From positions 6,769 to 43,910 of the forward strand of contig JAGOBZ010000001.1 in the NCBI GenBank assembly GCA_017999015.1: a stretch of DNA of 37,142 nt, given 5' to 3'. The DNA comes from Kiritimatiellia bacterium. Its GTDB lineage: Bacteria; Verrucomicrobiota; Kiritimatiellia; RFP12; UBA1067. The stretch's first letter is position 1. The number at the start of each line of letters is the position of its first letter. The notes beneath the pieces were generated by a model, which had not been told where the DNA came from, did no database searches, and saw nothing but the letters and a program-made list of their open reading frames with translations. Shown here in pieces: positions 6,675 to 24,326 of this stretch. A program made the position numbers and the translations under genes.

Positions 6675-7469
6675 TCAGTCCCCTGCGTTGTATCGGTGGA
6701 GGTCGGCGTCCGAAATGGCACTTGCAGGAACCAAGGTGTAGTGCTTCTGATCGATCACGCGCACTTGGTCATCGTTTAGTGTTAGCTCGAACATCGCAAT
6801 GCGGTTGTCGCTGAGCGCATGGACTGAAACCGGACGGCAGATGAGATTGGGGAAACGTTCTCTGCAGAACAAAAGGTCTTGCTCCGTCTGAACGACACCG
6901 TGCTGATCCTTGCCGACTTTCGCCTGCACAGGAACAATGAATTGGCTGCCCCGCCGGTTGAGTCCGACATAAATTTCATCGATTTCGATCTGCCCAATGC
7001 TTTTTACGGTTGTGCGCAGGTGGTTCTGAAGAGAGTGCGCGGTAATACCGAGAAAAAGATCAATCAATCGGTTATACCGCACTTTTGCCAACAGGGCTTG
7101 TTCGTCATCAAAGGCGTTAGCAAGCAGAATTTCAGGTGTCGCGTTGGGCACTTTGATTGCCAACATCGTCTCGTCAGGTTCGATTCGGCTCATGTGCGCC
7201 TGCTTGAAAAGATAGCGTCCCGTGCCGGCACCTTTAATGATCCAAACCATACCCGGTCGGGCTGTCCGCGTGATCGATTCGGGCAGTGCAACCCGATAAC
7301 GGAATGAGTAGAGAACATCGCCTAATTTTTTCGGTAATTTGATGTTCAACTCCGATGCCGTGGCGGCAAGTTCTTCGCGTTCGAAAAGGAATTCGCTCTC
7401 GCCCGGTTTGTAATGCGAGAAGAAAATGCGCTCAATCAGCGCGGCATACCGGTTCAGAGATTTGCCCAT
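6675..7469 (-). CDS. putative type II restriction endonuclease (PD-(D/E)xK-like), partner of the adjacent C5 methyltransferase
   Basis: 264 aa ORF starting 14 nt downstream of the methyltransferase stop on the same strand. Shares the same reduced G+C (~47% in sampled lines). Contains IEIDEIYVGLNRRGSQFIVPVQAKVGKD, a D-x(n)-(E/Q)xK-like catalytic pattern. I cannot name the family by eye. Confidence 0.5.
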   Translation of the reverse strand: MGKSLNRYAALIERIFFSHYKPGESEFLFEREELAATASELNIKLPKKLGDVLYSFRYRVALPESITRTARPGMVWIIKGAGTGRYLFKQAHMSRIEPDETMLAIKVPNATPEILLANAFDDEQALLAKVRYNRLIDLFLGITAHSLQNHLRTTVKSIGQIEIDEIYVGLNRRGSQFIVPVQAKVGKDQHGVVQTEQDLLFCRERFPNLICRPVSVHALSDNRIAMFELTLNDDQVRVIDQKHYTLVPASAISDADLHRYNAGD

Positions 7470-7483
7470 GAGAGAACGATCTC

Positions 7484-9013
7484 CTATTTTCGTGTTCTTT
7501 GCCCGATTACCGAAGCAGGCACACCAAAGTGATCGGCAGCCTGACGCATGTTAAGGTTTAACAGTACGCCGTCACCCGGCGTGATCGCGACGTTCGGCTT
7601 TGACGGCTCAATCCCGAGAGCCTCGATGATTTTCCCAGCTATGGCATGTCCGAGAAGCGGCGGGACACTGTTTCCTATCTGGCGGAAACCGTGCCATTTG
7701 GTCACATGAAACCGGAACCAATCGGGATACGAGTGCAGGCGGGCAGCCTCGCGTACCGTAATGACACGCGGCCTCGTAGGATGGATCGGTCGCGGAGACG
7801 TAAATGCGCCACGCGCGCTGTCGGTGCCTGCACGGAGCGTGTTACACTGACCGGACAGCGACAACTTGAAGAACCGGCTGACCGGCTCCGTCGTGCCAGC
7901 GACCGCGTCGATAAAACGGGCCTTCGATTCCTTTGTGTGAACCGTCCGTAAACTGCACGTCAGCATGCCACGGTCGAACATTCGGGGATAGCTGAAATCG
8001 CCCAGATCGTCCATCAGCCCCCGCAACTTCTTGGCATAGTCTGTCTTTGTTTCCCATGTGACGTTTACGGCATCCGAATCCAATAACGCTTTGAAACGGT
8101 CAGCATCCGGCAAGTCCCCGATTGCTTCCGCTACGGTCACCTTGTCTGCTTGTGGTACCGGGTAGACAGGCGGCGGCTGGCCGCTACGATAGGCCATCAG
8201 AAAGAGACGGAAACGGTTCTGGGGCACACCATAGTCGGCGGCATTCAACACGCGGTAAGGTAAAACGACATGATACCCCGCGTTTTCCAATGCAGCGATC
8301 AACTCTTTAAGAAACTGCACATGCCTGCCAATGGTCAACCCTTTTACATTCTCGAAAACACAGTATTTCGGACGTAGTTCCGTAACCAGTCTGACGAAGT
8401 GCGAAACCAGCTTGTTCCGAGGGTCGTCCAGAGCCCTTTTCCCAATCATCGAGAAACCCTGACAGGGTGCGCCGCCGAACACCACGTCAATGTCGCGGTC
8501 GCCGATGTCGCAACGGCGGCGAATCGCGGATCCCGTCAAGGCCGTGACGCTCTCGCATATCGAGGCTGCATACGGAAAGTTGTACTCATGTGTCGCACAG
8601 TGGATCGGATCGATTTCAACACATGCGGCAATGTCAAACCCCGCCCCTTCAAATCCCAAGGAAAGACCGCCGGCTCCGGCGAACAGGTCAATCCCGATAG
8701 GGCGTCCGTTCACAACAGGTGAATACTTCCGTTCGCACGGCGGTAATGCAGTCGGCAAGTCTTGGCCAACCGGCCAAAACATGAACTGTCCCTGAACCAA
8801 CAAATTGGGATGCGTGTCGGAGGACAGCAGTTGGAACCCAGCCTTCTCGAACTCAGCGTGATACGTTAAGACATCTTCGCGGATGTGCTGAGGAAGATCA
8901 TTCGCCGAAAGCACACAACCATGATGGGTTTGAGCAAAATCCGACAGGTTTTTTTGGCGCGATTGAACGCGTTTCTTATTCTGCGAATACGTTGTGGGCT
9001 GCCTCTTAGTCAT
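7484..9013 (-). CDS. DNA (cytosine-5)-methyltransferase
   Basis: All canonical C5-MTase motifs occur in order: I IDLFAGAGGLSLGF, IV GGAPCQGFS, VI FENVKGL, VIII QNRFRLFLMA, IX RVITVREAARLHSYPDWFRF, X QIGNSVPPLL. The track ORF begins at a TTG (9052); the first ATG is at 9013 (MTKRQPTTYS...), so the start is uncertain. There is an N-terminal extension of ~100 aa before motif I. Confidence 0.9.
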   Translation of the reverse strand: MTKRQPTTYSQNKKRVQSRQKNLSDFAQTHHGCVLSANDLPQHIREDVLTYHAEFEKAGFQLLSSDTHPNLLVQGQFMFWPVGQDLPTALPPCERKYSPVVNGRPIGIDLFAGAGGLSLGFEGAGFDIAACVEIDPIHCATHEYNFPYAASICESVTALTGSAIRRRCDIGDRDIDVVFGGAPCQGFSMIGKRALDDPRNKLVSHFVRLVTELRPKYCVFENVKGLTIGRHVQFLKELIAALENAGYHVVLPYRVLNAADYGVPQNRFRLFLMAYRSGQPPPVYPVPQADKVTVAEAIGDLPDADRFKALLDSDAVNVTWETKTDYAKKLRGLMDDLGDFSYPRMFDRGMLTCSLRTVHTKESKARFIDAVAGTTEPVSRFFKLSLSGQCNTLRAGTDSARGAFTSPRPIHPTRPRVITVREAARLHSYPDWFRFHVTKWHGFRQIGNSVPPLLGHAIAGKIIEALGIEPSKPNVAITPGDGVLLNLNMRQAADHFGVPASVIGQRTRK

Positions 9014-9064
9014 TGCGTAGCGAGAATAACAATTATCGAGCCTGTCTTTCAAACCTGATCGCCA

Positions 9065-18683: not shown

Positions 18684-18721
18684 AGAAACGCCGGGTTTCT
18701 AGTACTCTGTATAGAATACTA
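18684..18721. terminator. candidate bidirectional terminator hairpins between convergent genes
   Basis: Two hairpins: agaaac-gccgg-gtttct (18684-18700) and tagtactct-gtat-agaatacta (18700-18721; 9 bp stem with one mismatch). They lie in the 61-nt gap between the CNNM operon end and the parA end. No strong T-tract. Confidence 0.35.
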
Positions 18722-19531
18722 TGCTTGTTCAGCCGCAGGGCGAGAGGTCGGCGCGGTGCGGCGCGCGAATTCCGCAGCAAAGGCGCGGTAGGCTTCCGCG
18801 CCGCGGCTGGAAGGATCGTAGAAGATGACCGGCTGTCCGAAGCTGGGCGCCTCGCTGATGCGCACGTTGCGCGGGATAACCGTGTCGTAGACCTTTTCAC
18901 CGAAGTGTGCGCGCACCTCCGTCACGACATCGGCCGCCAGACGTGTGCGGCCGTCGAACATCGTCATCAGGATGCCTTCGAGCTGCAGGTCCGCATTGAC
19001 GCCGTTGGTGCGGAGCTGTTCAATCAGCGAGGTGATCACGCTCAGGCCCTCCATGGCGTAATACTCGCATTGCATGGTGACCACGATGCCGTCGGCCGCC
19101 GCGAGCGAGGAGGTCATCAGGATGCCGAGCGAAGGCGGGCAGTCCAGCAGCACGTAGTCAAAGACACCGGCGGTGAGTACGCGGTCGAGCACGTTGCGGA
19201 CCACGGCCAAATGATTATCCTGACGCGCGATCTCGATCTCCGCGCCGGCCAGGTCAAGCTCGGCCGGAATGATGTTGATGCCCTCATACGGGGTGGCTTG
19301 GATGATATCGGCCACATCGGCCGCGCCCGTGAGCACCGGATAAAGGCTGAGGCCCGGCTGGCGCGGCAGCCCGAGCCCGCTGGTGGCGTTGGCCTGGGGG
19401 TCGAGGTCGATGACCAGAACCGTCTTCTGCATCCGGGAGAGCGCGGCCGCCAGGTTGACGACCGTGGTCGTTTTGCCGACGCCGCCTTTTTGGTTGGCGA
19501 TCGCGATGACGCGTGTGGCGCGAGTGCTCAT
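18719..19531 (-). CDS. parA: ParA/Soj-family ATPase
   Basis: 270 aa with the deviant Walker A IAIANQKGGVGKTTTVVNLA. Also has VLVIDLDPQANAT and the ParA-typical IPRNVRISEAPSFGQPVIFYDPSSRGAEAY. Start overlaps the leuD stop (ATGA at 19528-19531). No parB in the window. Confidence 0.85.
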   Translation of the reverse strand: MSTRATRVIAIANQKGGVGKTTTVVNLAAALSRMQKTVLVIDLDPQANATSGLGLPRQPGLSLYPVLTGAADVADIIQATPYEGINIIPAELDLAGAEIEIARQDNHLAVVRNVLDRVLTAGVFDYVLLDCPPSLGILMTSSLAAADGIVVTMQCEYYAMEGLSVITSLIEQLRTNGVNADLQLEGILMTMFDGRTRLAADVVTEVRAHFGEKVYDTVIPRNVRISEAPSFGQPVIFYDPSSRGAEAYRAFAAEFARRTAPTSRPAAEQA

Positions 19532-20076
19532 TTTTTGATCATCCCGATCTCGCGGGCGTAGGCGAACATGCCGCCGGCTGCGATGACCGGCGCGACCGCG
19601 CCGACCGGTTTCAAAGTGAAAGCTTTGCCGTCCGACAGGCGGGTGATGGTGTTTTTTTCAATGTCGATCTCCGCCAGGTCTCCGGTCTTGAACTCGCCGC
19701 ACAAACGCTTCTCCGATTCGAGCGGGAAGATCTCGCCGGTGGCCACGGAATTGCGGAAGAAGATGCGGGCGTAGCTCTCGGCCACAACCGCCTTGGCGCC
19801 GGCGGCGCCGAGCGCGATCGGTGCGTGCTCGCGCGAGGAACCGCAGCCGAAATTGCGTCCGCCGATAACGATCGCATAGGGCGTGGTGCCGTCCGGGTTC
19901 GAGACGAACTTCGGGAAGGAGTCGGGCAGCCCCGCGAGTGCGTAAGAGCCAAGCTTACGGTACTCCTCCGGGATCGTGGGCACGAGGTTCAGATAGCACG
20001 CCGGGATCAGCAGGTCCGTGTCGATATTGTCTTCGAGCACGTAGACCGGGCCGCGGATAAGGGTGTCTTTAGGCAT
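19528..20076 (-). CDS. leuD: 3-isopropylmalate dehydratase small subunit (aconitase-family swivel domain, short archaeal-type)
   Basis: 182 aa: VYVLEDNIDTDLLIPACYL...IVIGGRNFGCGSSREHAPIALGAAGAKAVVAESYARIFFRNS. This is a typical LeuD/HacB pattern with the GSSREHA motif. Confidence 0.85.
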   Translation of the reverse strand: MPKDTLIRGPVYVLEDNIDTDLLIPACYLNLVPTIPEEYRKLGSYALAGLPDSFPKFVSNPDGTTPYAIVIGGRNFGCGSSREHAPIALGAAGAKAVVAESYARIFFRNSVATGEIFPLESEKRLCGEFKTGDLAEIDIEKNTITRLSDGKAFTLKPVGAVAPVIAAGGMFAYAREIGMIKK

Positions 20077-20093
20077 GATTGAGTCCTCTTCTT

Positions 20094-20711
20094 TCAGGCA
20101 AGTTGGCAGACATCATAGTCAGAAAAATGCCATAGTTCAAAACCATAGGTTGAGATGCCTTTGGTCAACTGACTATTTGTGACCCTTCTTCCGCAACCGG
20201 AGGTTATTTTCGCTGGGCGATTAAATGCCGTAACAACCGTTTGCGTTGGCGCAGGGGACGGAGGTGTTTTGCGAAAGTAGCAACAGCGTTTCGAGGAAAA
20301 CGGATCCGCAAACAGGCGTACACCGGACACGTTAAACAAATGCTCAAGGGTTTTACGCAATTGGCGGGTCTTCACCCCGGATGAAGTTGTTACCTTCATT
20401 TCAACAAGGCAGAAGACCCGATTGCTGTCGTCGTAGATAATGAAATCACACTGTTCGGGATACGGCGGAGGAATAGACCGGACATAATCACCAAACTTCA
20501 GACAGTGGATACGCAATGCGCTCAAATTATCAAAATTAGCCGTTTCGTGCCGGCTATTCTTGACAATCGGAGAGGCATAAGACGTTGTTCGACTCTGCGG
20601 GTCGTTCAAGCCGAACGAGGGACAAGTAATTATCACACAACGGTCTGATTCTGATAACGTCGCCTGCGACCAAGGCGCGACCGCAGAAAGTATTGAGGAA
20701 ATCGCGCTCAC
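20094..20711 (-). CDS. hypothetical protein with PD-(D/E)xK-like motif (candidate nuclease effector of the low-GC cassette)
   Basis: 205 aa. GTG start overlaps the ATPase stop (GTGA at 20708-20711). Low G+C. Contains SRHETANF ... CDFIIYDDSNRVFCLVEMKV, i.e. E...D-x14-E-x-K with hydrophobic beta-strand context. No other motif recognised. Confidence 0.6.
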   Translation of the reverse strand: MSAISSILSAVAPWSQATLSESDRCVIITCPSFGLNDPQSRTTSYASPIVKNSRHETANFDNLSALRIHCLKFGDYVRSIPPPYPEQCDFIIYDDSNRVFCLVEMKVTTSSGVKTRQLRKTLEHLFNVSGVRLFADPFSSKRCCYFRKTPPSPAPTQTVVTAFNRPAKITSGCGRRVTNSQLTKGISTYGFELWHFSDYDVCQLA

Positions 20712-21961
20712 GTCAGTTCCTCATACCGGTTGTAAATGACATTAATTGCGTCTGAAAGCGCGTTCGTGTCAATCAGACGATTGTCCGCCATCTTCAAATC
20801 ATCAATCCCGCCATCAGTCACATGATATGCAGCGATCTTGTCAAAGTCCAAACGAGCACCGTTTGTGAACTCGGTGTTGTTCGTGTCGTGTGCCTTGATG
20901 AGAAGGTTTAAATGGTTGAGAATGTAGGGGCTGTGCGTTGTCATCATGAAACGAATGGGATTCCGATCCTCGCCCGAGCCTAATACAATCAGACGGTTCA
21001 ATAGGTCGCATTGTGCGTTAGGGAAAAGGCCGAGTTCTGGTTCTTCAACATGAAAAAAAATGCGCTTGGAGAGTGTGTCAGTGTCTGAGATTGGTCTGAA
21101 CTCGGTTAACTTGCCTAAATCTGAGACGGTAGAAAGCAACGCCCGATTAAATGACCCGGTCAAGTCAAGATCGTTAGCAAAATATGACGCAAGCAATAAT
21201 ATGGGTACCGTGTTTTGGATACCGGAAGAACTGTGCGTAAAATCTATTTGGTATTGGGCCCCGTCTAAATTGGATACGCGATGCTTCCATCCGAATGGGG
21301 TGGATTCTGCCGAGAACCGAACATCGAGAAAATCGACATCTAACGCCTCCCGCGTTGCGCAGGCGCGCTCGAAATCCTCAACCATCTCCTCAAAATGCGC
21401 TTCAAACGCCGGTCGCCGTCCTTTGCTTTTAAGCAAAAAGGGCAAGAATCCTCGTGTTTCCGTGATATAGGAGAGCTTACTGTAAGAAATCCCGCCGACT
21501 GGGATATCACCCCTTGTATCTAATTTTTTGTCGCGATACTGAATCACAAAAGGTTGAGAGACGCCATCGAAATAAACGGAATATTGAATACTGGTATTGT
21601 TGGCAACAAATTCCGACAATCCCGCGTATTCTAGATGCTTGTCCATGCCGAGACGAAACGGCGATTTGGTGATCCTGCTGGCTTGAAGGTACGTGCGGAA
21701 ATTTAATCGTTTGAAGAGCCATCGGAACAGAGCGATGGCTTTCATGAGTGCACTTTTCCCCCCCGCTGATTCGCCGATAAAGACAGTGAACGGCTTAATG
21801 TCGCCAATCTTAACCTCTCTCACTGGGCCAAGATTACGAATGCATATTTCTTCCCTGATAATGTCCGTCTTCAGGATATCCTCGGGGGAAGTAAGAATCT
21901 GAGTCGGAGAAGACGTGAGAACCGTTCCGTCCACGTCATTTCTGTTGATGTGGCCGTTCAT
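20708..21961 (-). CDS. ABC-type / AAA_15-AAA_21-like ATPase (defense-associated ATPase family)
   Basis: 417 aa. Motifs: Walker A FIGESAGGKSALMKAI; signature-like HSSSGIQN; Walker B plus D-loop RIFFHVEEPELGLFP (matches the hhhhDEPExxLHP pattern of AAA_15/21 proteins); H-loop MMTTHSPYIL. ATG overlaps the upstream stop (ATGA at 21958-21961). Low G+C. Confidence 0.8.
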   Translation of the reverse strand: MNGHINRNDVDGTVLTSSPTQILTSPEDILKTDIIREEICIRNLGPVREVKIGDIKPFTVFIGESAGGKSALMKAIALFRWLFKRLNFRTYLQASRITKSPFRLGMDKHLEYAGLSEFVANNTSIQYSVYFDGVSQPFVIQYRDKKLDTRGDIPVGGISYSKLSYITETRGFLPFLLKSKGRRPAFEAHFEEMVEDFERACATREALDVDFLDVRFSAESTPFGWKHRVSNLDGAQYQIDFTHSSSGIQNTVPILLLASYFANDLDLTGSFNRALLSTVSDLGKLTEFRPISDTDTLSKRIFFHVEEPELGLFPNAQCDLLNRLIVLGSGEDRNPIRFMMTTHSPYILNHLNLLIKAHDTNNTEFTNGARLDFDKIAAYHVTDGGIDDLKMADNRLIDTNALSDAINVIYNRYEELT

Positions 21962-22284
21962 TGTTTTTGCTCGTTCAAACTCGAGTTGTTTGCCTGAGTG
22001 TTAAGCAAACCCAACATGCCAACTGAATGCTGGCTTGTGAACCCACATTGGTTGCAGATTAACGCTACAAGGGGCAGGAAACCATCACTAGCTCGCACAT
22101 GGCCGACACGGTTAACCTCGATTTGGTTCTGGACCAAAGGCTTGACGTAACTATCCACCAACGTCCATTCTTTGTTACCGCACATCGGACACGCCCTTGG
22201 CACGCCCCGTTCGCGAAGGCGGTCAACTATCTCCTGTTTTCGCTCTTGGGAGAGTCCTTGATTATTGGTAAGTTTTTCGTTCAT
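21958..22284 (-). CDS. small zinc-ribbon protein (CxxC...CxxC), first gene of the low-GC cassette
   Basis: 108 aa: CPMCGNKEWTL ... 41 residues ... CNQCGFTSQH. Has a basic/helical N-terminus (LSQERKQEIVDRLRERG) and an Asn/Gln-rich tail. An AGGGA RBS lies 4 nt before the ATG. Begins 46 nt after the leuC stop. Confidence 0.65.
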   Translation of the reverse strand: MNEKLTNNQGLSQERKQEIVDRLRERGVPRACPMCGNKEWTLVDSYVKPLVQNQIEVNRVGHVRASDGFLPLVALICNQCGFTSQHSVGMLGLLNTQANNSSLNEQKQ

Positions 22285-22330
22285 CGCGTCCCTGATGTCC
22301 GTAGATGAAGCAATTAAATCAGTGTCGAAA

Positions 22331-23620
22331 TCACACGTCGCGCGGGTCGGTGATATGGCCGGTGAGGGCGCTGGCGGCCGCAGTGTAGGGCGAGGCCAGG
22401 TAGACCTGCGAGTCTTTCGAACCCATGCGGCCGATGAAGTTGCGGTTCGTCGTGCTGACCACGACCTCCTTGCCGTGGGTGCGTCCGAAGGTGTCGATCG
22501 GGCCGCCCAGGCAGGCCGCGCAAGAAGGCGGCGCGATCGGATCGACGCCGGCCGCCTCGAAAATGTGTCTCAGGCTCTGGCCGTCGATGCGGGTTTCATC
22601 AAGTCCGCTTTCGACCTGGCGCGTGGCCGGCACGAGCAGCGTGCGGACCGCGACACGGCGGCCCTTCATGATTCGCGCCGCCATGATGAAATCCTCCAGC
22701 TTGCCGCCGGTGCAGGAGCCGATGTAGACCTGGTCGACTTTCACGTCGCGGCAAGAGCGCGCCAGTGCTTTGTTGTCGGGCAAATGCGGGCGGGCCACGA
22801 CCGGTTCAAGCGTCGAAACATCGTAACGGTGTTCGGCCTGAATGTGTGCGTCGGGGTCACTGTAGAGCGGTTCGAACGGTTTGGCCGTGCGGGCCTTCAC
22901 ATAGGCATAGGTCTTGGCGTCGGGCGCGATGATGCCGTTCTTGGCGCCGGCTTCGACCGCCATGTTACAGATGGTGCAGCGCTCTTCGATGCTGAGTGCC
23001 TCAATTGCTGCGCCCGTGAACTCCATCGCGCAGTAGGTGGCGCCGTCCACGCCGATGTCTCCGATGATATGCAGGATCAAGTCTTTGGCCGACAAGTAGT
23101 CCGGCATCTCGCCGTCCAGCACGAAGCGCAGTGTGGGCGGAACTTTGACCAGCAGTTTGCCGGTTCCCATGATGAAGCCTGCATCGGTGTTGCCGATGCC
23201 GGTCGAGAAGGCACCCAGCGCGCCGTGCGTGCAGGTGTGCGAATCGGTGCCGAAGATCGTCGCGCCCGGCAGCACGTGGCCGAGTTCGGGAAGGGCCACA
23301 TGGCAGACACCGCAATAGCTGTCGGTGCCGGGATCGTAGAAATAGGGCAACCCTTGCTCTTTAACGAAGTCGCGCAGGATATCCACATTGCGGTGCGCTT
23401 TTTCATCGGCCGTGAAGATGTAGTGGTCCGGCAGAATGACGATTTTTTCGCGGTCGAAAACCTTGGCATCTTTGCCGAATTCGCGCTGAAAGATGCCGAT
23501 CGTGCCGGGACCGCAGACGTCGTGCGTCAGAAGGATGCCGGCGTTGACCCAGATATTGTCACCGGGGGAAACCAGAGAGGCGCCCGACTCGCGCGCCAAG
23601 ATTTTTTCTGTAATGGTCAT
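22331..23620 (-). CDS. leuC: 3-isopropylmalate dehydratase large subunit (aconitase family, short archaeal-type)
   Basis: Start placed at the ATG at 23620 (MTITEKILARESG...). Contains GTDSHTCTHGALGAFSTGIG, YIGSCTGG, SCAACLG and STTNRNFIGRMG (Fe-S ligands and aconitase motifs). The track ORF start at 23674 would overlap the upstream gene. Confidence 0.9.
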   Translation of the reverse strand: MTITEKILARESGASLVSPGDNIWVNAGILLTHDVCGPGTIGIFQREFGKDAKVFDREKIVILPDHYIFTADEKAHRNVDILRDFVKEQGLPYFYDPGTDSYCGVCHVALPELGHVLPGATIFGTDSHTCTHGALGAFSTGIGNTDAGFIMGTGKLLVKVPPTLRFVLDGEMPDYLSAKDLILHIIGDIGVDGATYCAMEFTGAAIEALSIEERCTICNMAVEAGAKNGIIAPDAKTYAYVKARTAKPFEPLYSDPDAHIQAEHRYDVSTLEPVVARPHLPDNKALARSCRDVKVDQVYIGSCTGGKLEDFIMAARIMKGRRVAVRTLLVPATRQVESGLDETRIDGQSLRHIFEAAGVDPIAPPSCAACLGGPIDTFGRTHGKEVVVSTTNRNFIGRMGSKDSQVYLASPYTAAASALTGHITDPRDV

Positions 23621-23627
23621 AGCGGTA

Positions 23628-24326
23628 TCAACGTTTTTGGATAAGTTCGAAGAATCTGTCCTGAAAGCGTTCAAAAAGCCCGTGGTCGTGCAAGAGCTTG
23701 CCGAGCGGCTTGATCAGGCTCGCGTCTTTAGAGGCGGCTTGAAACCCCTTTTCGATCTCGTCGCGCAGCCCTGACGGCAGGCCGTCCTGCAGCTCGAAAA
23801 GACGGCGTTCGTGAAGCTCGCGGATGTTGGCCTGTGCAGAGTTTTGTATCACGGTCCAAAAGAGTCGCACAAGGCAGACGTCCCAAGGGTCGTCCACACC
23901 TTTGACCACTGCGGCGAACGGGTCGTTCTTGGTTGCGGCCTCACGCGCCACACGCTCCAGCACGGCTTCGGGCGTATCGGTCAGAACCTGCTCGCTGAAG
24001 GCTTCCTGCTTGAGGGTGTAACCATAGCGCAGGATGCGCACCGAATCCTCATGTTCCTTGAGCCACTCCAGGTATTGCTGCGCCTGCTCGCCAAACCCTT
24101 CGAGCATGGTCGATGAGTAGGCGGAGGGCGTGATGATCTGGGGCCGCAGCGCTTGCATGCGCCCCTCGCGAACGCGGACCTTGCCCACCGCGTCCATCAA
24201 CTCACTGATGAGGTAGTAGTTGATAATGGTGTTGCCGAAGGTTTCGAGATGACGTTTGGGCGGCATCACGATCTCCGTGTTGTTGACGGCAAACCAGAAA
24301 TCAAATTGTGTCGGTCTTTTACTCAT
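23628..24326 (-). CDS. conserved hypothetical protein
   Basis: About 232 aa from the ATG at 24326 (MSKRPTQFDFWFAVNN...). Native G+C and strong GC3 bias. The stop lies 7 nt before the leuC start, so it is probably co-transcribed. No recognisable motif. Confidence 0.6.
   Translation of the reverse strand: MSKRPTQFDFWFAVNNTEIVMPPKRHLETFGNTIINYYLISELMDAVGKVRVREGRMQALRPQIITPSAYSSTMLEGFGEQAQQYLEWLKEHEDSVRILRYGYTLKQEAFSEQVLTDTPEAVLERVAREAATKNDPFAAVVKGVDDPWDVCLVRLFWTVIQNSAQANIRELHERRLFELQDGLPSGLRDEIEKGFQAASKDASLIKPLGKLLHDHGLFERFQDRFFELIQKR

Follow-up and report, generated by a model that had tools for sequence, protein, structure and literature searches.

Which function is encoded by three small, overlapping genes on the minus strand between leuC and leuD in a Kiritimatiellia bacterium, and has such a system been described before? 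The question is posed by a 37,142-nucleotide stretch of contig JAGOBZ010000001.1 (GenBank assembly GCA_017999015.1, positions 6,769 to 43,910 of the forward strand), to which we refer in its entirety as the window, and whose initial annotation had presented the three genes as a candidate for an undescribed anti-phage defence system. We consider it fairly probable that the cassette is a horizontally exchanged accessory conflict module, most probably directed against phages or other mobile genetic elements, and that it belongs to the class in which an ABC ATPase sensor is combined with a separate nuclease effector. As judged from profile comparisons, its ATPase-nuclease core represents a divergent offshoot of PDC-M29, which has already been catalogued as a predicted candidate system. 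New here are the three-gene variant with a borrowed zinc-ribbon gene and a matching extension of the ATPase, the hotspot within an operon, and the structural assignment of the effector. Few classes of bacterial immunity are as large, and as poorly understood, as the defences that combine an ABC ATPase with an effector.

Organization of the cassette

The listing of open reading frames (ORFs) contains three overlapping minus-strand ORFs between leuC and leuD, which encode proteins of 108, 417 and 205 amino acids (aa), here called ZnR, the ATPase and P3:

21958..22284, minus strand: ZnR, zinc-ribbon protein of 108 aa, ATG start; N-terminal helix at aa 13-25, then CPMC, CNQC and H86
20708..21961, minus strand: ABC-type (AAA_15/AAA_21) ATPase of 417 aa, ATG start; assigned through PADLOC, Pfam and invariant motifs
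20094..20711, minus strand: P3, predicted PD-(D/E)xK nuclease of 205 aa and putative effector, GTG start

These ORFs and their two overlaps are present in the sequence exactly as the initial annotation had reported them: an ATGA at 21958-21961 joins stop and start of the ZnR and ATPase ORFs, and a GTGA at 20708-20711 does so for the ATPase and P3 ORFs. The GTG start of P3 is correct, since P3 homologues share "SAISS" as their N-terminus, in one case likewise with an initial V. Labels such as L001 or P0011 designate the loci, contigs or proteins of relatives with which the window cassette was compared.

The ATPase

By its sequence, the product of the middle gene is an ABC ATPase of the AAA_15/AAA_21 type, a kind that defence systems employ. 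Every motif by which the initial annotation had recognized it lies on invariant columns of a 40-sequence alignment:

21752..21775, minus strand: Walker A, GESAGGKS, aa 63-70; G63, S65, G68, K69 and S70 invariant in 40 homologues
21215..21229, minus strand: ABC signature-like SSGIQ, aa 245-249; S246 invariant, S245, G247 and Q249 conserved in at least 90% of 40 homologues
21020..21052, minus strand: Walker B/D-loop, HVEEPELGLFP, aa 304-314; H304, E306, E307, P308, E309, L310, L312 and P314 invariant
20927..20938, minus strand: H-loop, THSP, aa 342-345; T342, H343, S344 and P345 invariant in 40 homologues

Among the models of PADLOC-DB (2023 version), PDC-M29A is by far the best match (E = 1.6e-39, 134 bits; ATPase residues 38-366 against positions 3-336 of a 410-position profile). 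The further PADLOC matches, all of them partial, are to AriA (4e-18), ATPase-Toprim, NsnB, HEC-01A/02A, GajA, Old and PtuA. On the question of the ATPase clade, raised by the initial annotation, both AAA_15 (3.3e-14; 53.8 bits at a cut-off of 32.1) and AAA_21 (1.8e-10; 41.8 bits at a cut-off of 27) exceed the gathering score in Pfam. NCBIfam yielded only Walker-A matches far below threshold (retron Eco8 effector, PtuA, MAD3, RecN), the PtuA model scoring 20.7 bits against a cut-off of 500, and a search of PDB sequences returned a Walker-A match to 9n69 only. We view the protein as a PDC-M29A-like putative sensor and scaffold. More than 851 homologues were found by database search; they are mostly 380-392 aa long, and their hosts are chiefly Bacteroidota, Leptospira, Endomicrobium and Kiritimatiellota. 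A protein identical to the ATPase has been deposited as hypothetical in a metagenome-assembled genome (MAG) labelled "Betaproteobacteria bacterium ADurb.Bin341"; its syntenic relatives and its nearest named relatives are Kiritimatiellota MAGs, and the label or the binning of this MAG may be wrong.

The predicted nuclease P3

A direct search recovered 11 relatives of P3, and a profile of those relatives recovered 265 proteins of about 200 aa. The columns D37, N62, D89, E104, K106, L122, C143, F146 and F191 are invariant in an alignment of 119 sequences, and they include all three residues of the D-x14-ExK pattern to which the initial annotation had drawn attention:

20394..20447, minus strand: catalytic core motif D89-x14-E104-x-K106 of P3; invariant in 119 sequences

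An AlphaFold2 model built from the family alignment (pLDDT 91.4, pTM 0.88) has a core of strand 90-94, strand 99-107, helix 116-126 and strand 140-148, with D89 immediately preceding the first of these strands and E104 and K106 inside the second. Because the strand-strand-helix-strand order surrounds D89, E104 and K106, the predicted core corresponds to the canonical PD-(D/E)xK arrangement, the fold for which the initial annotation had suggested looking in this protein. Conserved CC and FNR motifs and extra N-terminal strands are present in addition. HSDR_N_2 and HSDR_N, the models for the nuclease domain (of PD-(D/E)xK type) that type I restriction enzymes carry, match 75 and 22 of the 119 family members, respectively, in all cases below the Pfam gathering score (best E 1.2e-4); the window P3 itself matches neither. 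The top list of a Foldseek search with the model, none of it significant, consists nearly entirely of PD-(D/E)xK proteins (McrC, DdmD, N.BspD6I, SdaI, EcoT38I, Hjc, FAN1, HincII), and the named matches in the BFVD collection, where the best E value of 0.07 is likewise not significant, include PD-(D/E)XK, Cas4 and VRR-NUC proteins. PDB sequences gave no match with profiles of either 14 or 119 sequences. In view of the invariant D...ExK residues, the topology of the model, the recurrent sub-threshold matches to HSDR_N_2 and the character of the Foldseek list, it is very probable that P3 belongs to the PD-(D/E)xK nucleases, to whose core it adds novel decorations. The expectation that the effector would be neither an HNH nor a Toprim protein is borne out, as P3 has no such match in PADLOC and Pfam and, for HNH, in NCBIfam as well. 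With the predicted fold, the catalytic residues D89, E104 and K106 are now defined as residues that can be tested.

The relationship of P3 to a catalogued family is transitive. PDC-M29B is matched by 66 of the 119 family members (best E 4e-10), the P3 profile reaches P0011 at 3.6e-62, and the family can be aligned over its full length with proteins matching PDC-M29B, such as P0011 itself (3.8e-9) and the partner protein of Capnocytophaga (2.8e-8). Scattered weak matches of the 119 members scanned concern PDC-M47B, HEC-02B (NERD) and a type II restriction endonuclease model. This chain of profiles suggests that P3 is related to PDC-M29B but has diverged so far that it no longer reaches the thresholds of the PADLOC models; because of this drift, PADLOC-type tools will miss the cassette.

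A conserved pair with a lineage-specific third gene

In each of the 14 distinct loci examined, the ATPase gene is followed, in the same order and usually with an overlap, by an adjacent gene for a partner of about 200 aa (the window, L001/2, L003/4, L010/11, L094, L162, L163/4, L169/70, the Capnocytophaga locus L006/7, the Dyadobacter locus L008/9, the P0011 contig, L166, L167 and L168). The ATPase-nuclease pair is a conserved unit. ZnR stands directly upstream in five of these loci, the trios (the window, L003/4, L163/4, L010/11 and L169/70), and all five trio ATPases carry an N-terminal extension of about 30-35 aa, which in the window comprises residues 1 to ~35; in the other nine loci, the duos, ZnR and extension are both absent. 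One of the duos, L162, occupies the identical leuC-leuD site. All five trios come from one Kiritimatiellota-like host lineage and from one subclade of the ATPase. Hence, the view of the initial annotation that the three genes form a single functional unit stands for the co-directional, overlapping ORFs and for the ATPase-nuclease pair, which co-occurs in 14/14 loci, but not to the same extent for ZnR, which accompanies the pair in 5/14 only, is confined to one subclade and belongs to a family that usually travels with another partner. Duo and trio at the same chromosomal site offer a natural comparison with and without ZnR and the ATPase extension.

A comparison of the L162 locus (positions 52-1829) with the window (20094-21961) bears on how the two proteins of the pair may interact. 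Up to the final two alignment windows of 40 columns each, the aligned core of the two ATPases is 33-62% identical; over the last ~80 residues the identity rises to 92-95%, and that of P3 is 70-80% (100% only in a 5-residue end window). This pattern suggests that L162 is a recombinant duo allele in which the C-terminus of the ATPase and the nuclease were exchanged as one unit. Since this segment appears to have been exchanged together with the nuclease at the L162 breakpoint, the C-terminal ~80 residues of the ATPase are likely to form a P3-specific interface and are predicted to be the site at which the nuclease is bound.

Two details of individual loci may be recorded here. At L169:2323-2997, in the interval between the ATPase gene and leuD, a P3-like ORF of about 220 aa (a variant of the L010 type) is intact and in frame and had not been called in the source annotation. 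At L167:5926-10185, on a 3.1-Mb contig, the pair is inserted between the genes for a response regulator and a histidine kinase, neighbours that are co-directional and linked in function, a setting comparable to that between leuC and leuD.

An accessory cassette in a hotspot within the leu operon

The surroundings of the cassette are as follows:

22331..23674, minus strand: leuC, large subunit of 3-isopropylmalate dehydratase, upstream flank; Aconitase family in homologous loci
22285..22330, minus strand: upstream junction, a spacer of 46 nucleotides (nt) from the leuC stop to the ZnR start, without the GC-rich hairpin of empty sites
20077..20093, minus strand: downstream junction, a 17-nt spacer with the ribosome-binding site of leuD (AAGAAGAGGA), without a terminator
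19528..20076, minus strand: leuD, small subunit, downstream flank; Aconitase_C in homologous loci, metagenome scan
18719-19531, co-directional with the cassette: parA, following leuD

The initial annotation had considered the cassette to be compositionally foreign, and the complete counts agree. Its GC content is 0.479 versus 0.615 for the remaining window; a profile in steps of 500 nt runs at 0.46-0.49 over positions 20001-22000 and at ~0.60-0.65 on either side. Gene by gene, GC contents of 0.47-0.49 in the cassette compare with 0.61-0.65 in leuC, leuD and parA, and at third codon positions (GC3) the values are 0.50-0.55 versus 0.78-0.83.

In a survey of the site (a leuD-anchored metagenome scan, followed by tblastn), the gap between leuC and leuD amounted to 12-100 nt in nearly all loci with both genes, including the closest relatives (leuD 91-95% identical); leuC of the window is 85-92% identical to that of close relatives. 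The cassette, which stands in place of a spacer of ~50 nt, is accessory. Most of the inspected empty spacers (~45-67 nt; L083-L086, L096 and L097) contain a GC-rich inverted repeat, e.g., GGGCGAAC...GTTCGCCC, which might serve mRNA processing or stability or act as a target for insertion. A comparison with window positions 20077-22330 found this repeat in neither junction spacer, and since the hairpin is missing, the cassette appears to have replaced the spacer.

Neither an integrase nor a transposase is encoded within the cassette, and no direct or inverted repeats or target-site duplication flank it, apart from short chance matches; transposon-like borders were rejected on these grounds. No promoter-like site was found in the 46-nt upstream spacer when it was searched for the sigma-70 consensus, and no terminator was found after P3, the counts being within shuffle expectation in both cases. 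Given its place between leuC and leuD and the lack of a recognizable promoter and terminator of its own, the cassette is probably expressed through read-through of the leu operon from leuC.

In this lineage, the spacers of leuC, leuD and parA form a hotspot at which cargo and alleles turn over. The ATPase-nuclease pair is found downstream of leuD instead in L001 and L123, and other low-GC cargo in the spacers of relatives comprises DUF1016/YhcG (PADLOC PDC-S02, 3e-121), an HD/dGTPase-like protein of 539 aa, DUF3997, a HARE-HTH protein of 258 aa, a 522-aa protein of unknown type, and a Y1 (IS200/RAYT-like) transposase with an ankyrin-repeat protein:

Sites with other cargo: L108:2219-5974; L109:127-561; L110:151-927; L090:3308-4876; L010:5842-7222; L011:4781-7194

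In the P0011 locus, a GmrSD gene adjoins the pair. The cassette genes diverge far faster than their flanks. In comparison with L003, P3 is 55%, the ATPase 76% and ZnR 69% identical, versus 89% for leuC and 92% for leuD; in comparison with L010, the corresponding values are 28%, 61% and 46%, versus 86% each for leuC and leuD. Synonymous divergence (dS) of the cassette is 1.7-2.2 or saturated, versus 0.67-0.86 for the flanks, and the ratio of nonsynonymous to synonymous divergence (omega) is 0.07-0.2. Because the divergence exceeds that of the flanks by so much while omega is low, we favour allele exchange at the hotspot under purifying selection over strict vertical descent.

ZnR and its usual partner

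The CxxC-x41-CxxC zinc ribbon seen in the initial annotation is a genuine family feature: among 126 relatives, C32, C35 and C77 are invariant and C80 and H86 nearly so.

22180..22191, minus strand: zinc knuckle 1 of ZnR, C32-P-M-C35; C32 and C35 invariant
22045..22056, minus strand: zinc knuckle 2 of ZnR, C77-N-Q-C80, with H86 at 22027-22029; C77 invariant, C80, G81 and H86 conserved in at least 90%

The family pattern is an N-terminal helix followed by CPxC...CxxCG(F/Y)xSQH, and proteins of 80-110 aa in 749 representative clusters were found at E<=1e-3. ZnR matches phrog_4293 (1.4e-8), and its family is absent from Pfam. A Foldseek search with an AlphaFold2 model of ZnR (pLDDT 87.7) returned nothing significant, with likeness only to generic zinc ribbons (RPA12, NrdR, Rpp21).

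Among 70 genomic loci of the ZnR family from many phyla, the ATPase adjoins ZnR in one, a Kiritimatiellota MAG. In 56 of the 70 (49, plus 7 rescued with a hidden Markov model, HMM), ZnR is followed by a protein of ~140 aa with two transmembrane helices (2-TM), and the two genes mostly share a 4-nt overlap; the remaining 13 loci, with neither the 2-TM protein nor the ATPase, have no recognizable recurring partner among the neighbouring ORFs inspected. The ZnR-2TM pair (e.g., L052:4001-4671; also L020 and L057, within L012-L081) occurs in Patescibacteria, Chloroflexota, Bacteroidota, Planctomycetota, Proteobacteria and archaea. It is also encoded by the temperate Arthrobacter phage Shoya, whose genes 27-28 (L165:2501-3219) stand between lysis genes and integrase; among the collected phages and plasmids, this is the only match of ZnR. 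The pair is absent from PADLOC and Pfam and apparently is a widespread, undescribed two-gene module that this locus has brought to light. As the 2-TM protein usually follows ZnR, the ZnR of the window can be regarded as a component borrowed from this separate module. Neither the window cassette nor the N-termini of the ATPases gave a match with the HMM of the 2-TM family; in the window, ZnR precedes the ATPase instead. An HMM of 49 N-termini of 2-TM proteins was also run, with filters off, against 120 ATPases and 2262 decoy ORFs, and the best E values, all above 7, fell at unrelated positions; the notion that the ATPase extension is a remnant of the 2-TM protein or shares a docking motif with it was rejected for want of any match in the ATPase N-termini.

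Does ZnR then contribute to the function of the cassette? The working system may consist of the ATPase and the nuclease only, with ZnR as a passenger, left over from an earlier ZnR-2TM occupant of the site whose 2-TM gene gave way to the ATPase pair, and kept for an independent function or as a translational leader. This explanation is possible, if on the unlikely side. It is favoured by the nine distinct loci in which the pair manages without ZnR, including L162 at the identical leuC-leuD site, by the preference of ZnR for the 2-TM protein elsewhere, and by the restriction of the trios to one host lineage and one ATPase subclade, which a single historical event might have produced. However, ZnR is intact and retains all of its zinc ligands in the five trio loci at 46-69% identity (nonsynonymous divergence, dN, ~0.2-0.5 with dS saturated), its gene shares 4 nt with the start of the ATPase gene in three loci (the window, L010 and L169), and the ATPase has its N-terminal extension in exactly those loci that have ZnR. 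The co-occurrence in the trios fits a ZnR that is a functional accessory and docks onto the ATPase extension.

A bolder proposal, which we put forward as somewhat speculative, treats ZnR as a portable sensor or regulator adaptor with interchangeable effectors: the 2-TM protein in most bacteria, some archaea and a temperate phage, and the ATPase-nuclease pair here, by way of the ATPase extension. If true, ZnR would define a new family of modular conflict systems, and the cassette would be a natural three-component hybrid of two otherwise separate, uncharacterized systems.

A proposed mode of action

By analogy with PARIS and HEC-02, an oligomer of the ATPase may hold the P3 nuclease in an inactive state. 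The ATPase would sense a cue of infection, for instance a protein of the phage or DNA of aberrant structure, and the binding or hydrolysis of ATP, coupled to sensing, would release or activate P3. The nuclease could then cleave nucleic acid and halt the replication of the phage, possibly at the cost of the cell. In the lineage studied here, a ZnR gene has probably joined the pair at its upstream end, translationally coupled to it, and an extension of ~35 aa has been gained by the ATPase; ZnR is probably an accessory regulator or sensor that docks onto the ATPase and might modulate sensing or keep the complex switched off.

Defence, addiction or housekeeping

Several points weigh against an anti-phage function. 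The case for defence draws on architecture and context only, and that for a role of ZnR on synteny within a single lineage; because a single host lineage and a single subclade of the ATPase account for all trios, the synteny of ZnR and ATPase could go back to one historical event, and thus to shared ancestry instead of function. Searches with the window P3 gave no match in PADLOC, Pfam, NCBIfam or PHROGs, nor any to the PDC-M29B models at E<=1, and the Foldseek search with its model gave nothing significant (best E 0.24, TM ~0.25). Most loci of the wider family lie among housekeeping genes rather than in defence islands, the association with defence genes is weak in most of them, and the family is almost absent from phage and plasmid collections, the ATPase having one weak plasmid match.

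An alternative is a selfish addiction module of the toxin-antitoxin type, in which P3 is a toxin that is restrained by the ATPase and/or ZnR, the module is maintained through post-segregational killing or by lodging in an essential operon, and phage defence is no more than a by-product. In favour of it, the cassette is small and tightly coupled, devoid of a promoter and placed inside operons (leuC-leuD; the response regulator and kinase genes in L167), its distribution is patchy and its alleles turn over rapidly; furthermore, the Pfam description of AAA_21 reads "putative AbiEii toxin, type IV TA", and a small 2-TM protein such as the usual partner of ZnR is an architecture common in toxin-antitoxin and abortive-infection modules. 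We nevertheless consider this explanation improbable. The closest validated analogues, HEC-02 and PARIS, act as phage defence, and the family is nearly absent from plasmids. The strong purifying selection on all three genes fits either view, and since toxin-antitoxin systems and abortive-infection defence overlap mechanistically, addiction and an anti-phage role are not cleanly separable.

A housekeeping module for DNA repair or chromosome maintenance (a SbcCD/RecN/RecF-like ATPase with a nuclease, co-expressed with leuCD and parA), for which one may cite the similar ATPase-plus-nuclease logic of SbcCD/Rad50-Mre11, a weak Walker-A match to RecN (0.12) and the co-directionality with parA, is very improbable, as the cassette is absent from the closest relatives with their intact empty sites, is foreign in GC content, diverges very fast and varies in position (upstream or downstream of leuD), and as no repair family is matched at the curated thresholds of Pfam and NCBIfam while the best matches of the ATPase are all defence ATPases.

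Elsewhere in the window

A second low-GC islet (GC 0.50-0.54) lies on the minus strand at positions 6675-9052:

7484-9052, minus strand: DNA cytosine-5 methyltransferase of 522 aa (PDB 3g7u, 3.4e-74)
6675-7469, minus strand: ORF of 264 aa, directly downstream of the methyltransferase ORF, with no match in a PDB sequence search

The protein encoded by the latter ORF may be the cognate restriction endonuclease of the methyltransferase.

Comparison with known systems

The PDC systems are 145 predicted candidates whose genes are embedded in BREX, DISARM or type I restriction-modification systems (Payne et al. 2024; 10.1101/2024.01.29.577857). PDC-M29 is one of them, defined as the cassette FAM_00005>>FAM_02872 with 110 instances in RefSeq (10.1101/2024.01.29.577857). 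In the searchable literature, the name "PDC-M29" is found in the supplementary table of Payne et al. only and in no main text; a newer name for this family may exist outside that literature. The window cassette shares with PDC-M29 the order of an AAA_15/21 ATPase of ~380-420 aa followed on the same strand, usually with an overlap, by a protein of ~200 aa, and its ATPase matches the PDC-M29A HMM at 1.6e-39. It differs in that P3 falls below the PDC-M29B models and in the additional ZnR gene and ATPase extension; because P3 lacks a PDC-M29B match, PADLOC would not call the system in the window. The claim that the system is undescribed does not hold for its core pair, since the ATPase matches PDC-M29A and the partner is transitively related to PDC-M29B through 66 of the 119 members of its family. 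PDC-M29 has so far been predicted through "guilt by embedding", and the locus adds independent evidence from context: an accessory cassette with rapid allele turnover, in a hotspot that also holds DUF1016/PDC-S02, HD-domain and HARE-HTH cargo.

HEC-02 consists of an ABC ATPase and a NERD PD-(D/E)xK protein, and phage protection that requires both genes has been shown (10.1101/2024.01.29.577857). Through this validated system, which is not PDC-M29 itself, the combination of an ATPase with a PD-(D/E)xK protein has an experimental precedent. Architecture and effector superfamily are the same, and the window ATPase matches HEC-02A over part of its length (3.2e-9). The ATPase clade differs, however, with PDC-M29A the far better match, and P3 is nearer to the N-terminal nuclease domain of HsdR than to NERD; the window P3 has no match to HEC-02B, and 5 of its 119 relatives match it weakly (9.4e-4 or worse).

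PARIS (PMC11464382, PMC10802454) is a complex of the ABC ATPase AriA and the Toprim nuclease AriB, in which AriA serves as the scaffold from which AriB is released when a phage protein is sensed. This two-gene combination of an ATPase scaffold and a nuclease effector is the best mechanistic template for the window cassette, and AriA is the second-best PADLOC match of the ATPase. The similarity to AriA is limited to residues 235-348, in the C-terminal third of the ATPase, though, and the predicted effector is of the PD-(D/E)xK type and not a Toprim/DUF4435 protein like AriB; neither P3 nor ZnR has an AriB or Toprim match in PADLOC and Pfam.

With Septu and Gabija, the cassette has the neighbourhood of its ABC ATPase clade in common, as reflected in partial matches to GajA (1e-8) and PtuA (5.5e-6). 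Unlike Septu (PtuA with the HNH protein PtuB), none of the three cassette proteins has an HNH match; unlike Gabija (the ATPase-Toprim protein GajA with the helicase GajB), the window ATPase has no Toprim domain and the cassette no gene for a UvrD-like helicase. The N-terminal nuclease domain of HsdR, finally, is the only Pfam family that is recurrently matched by the P3 family, with which it shares the D...ExK core, whereas P3 is a free-standing protein of 205 aa with extra N-terminal strands and the CC and FNR motifs.

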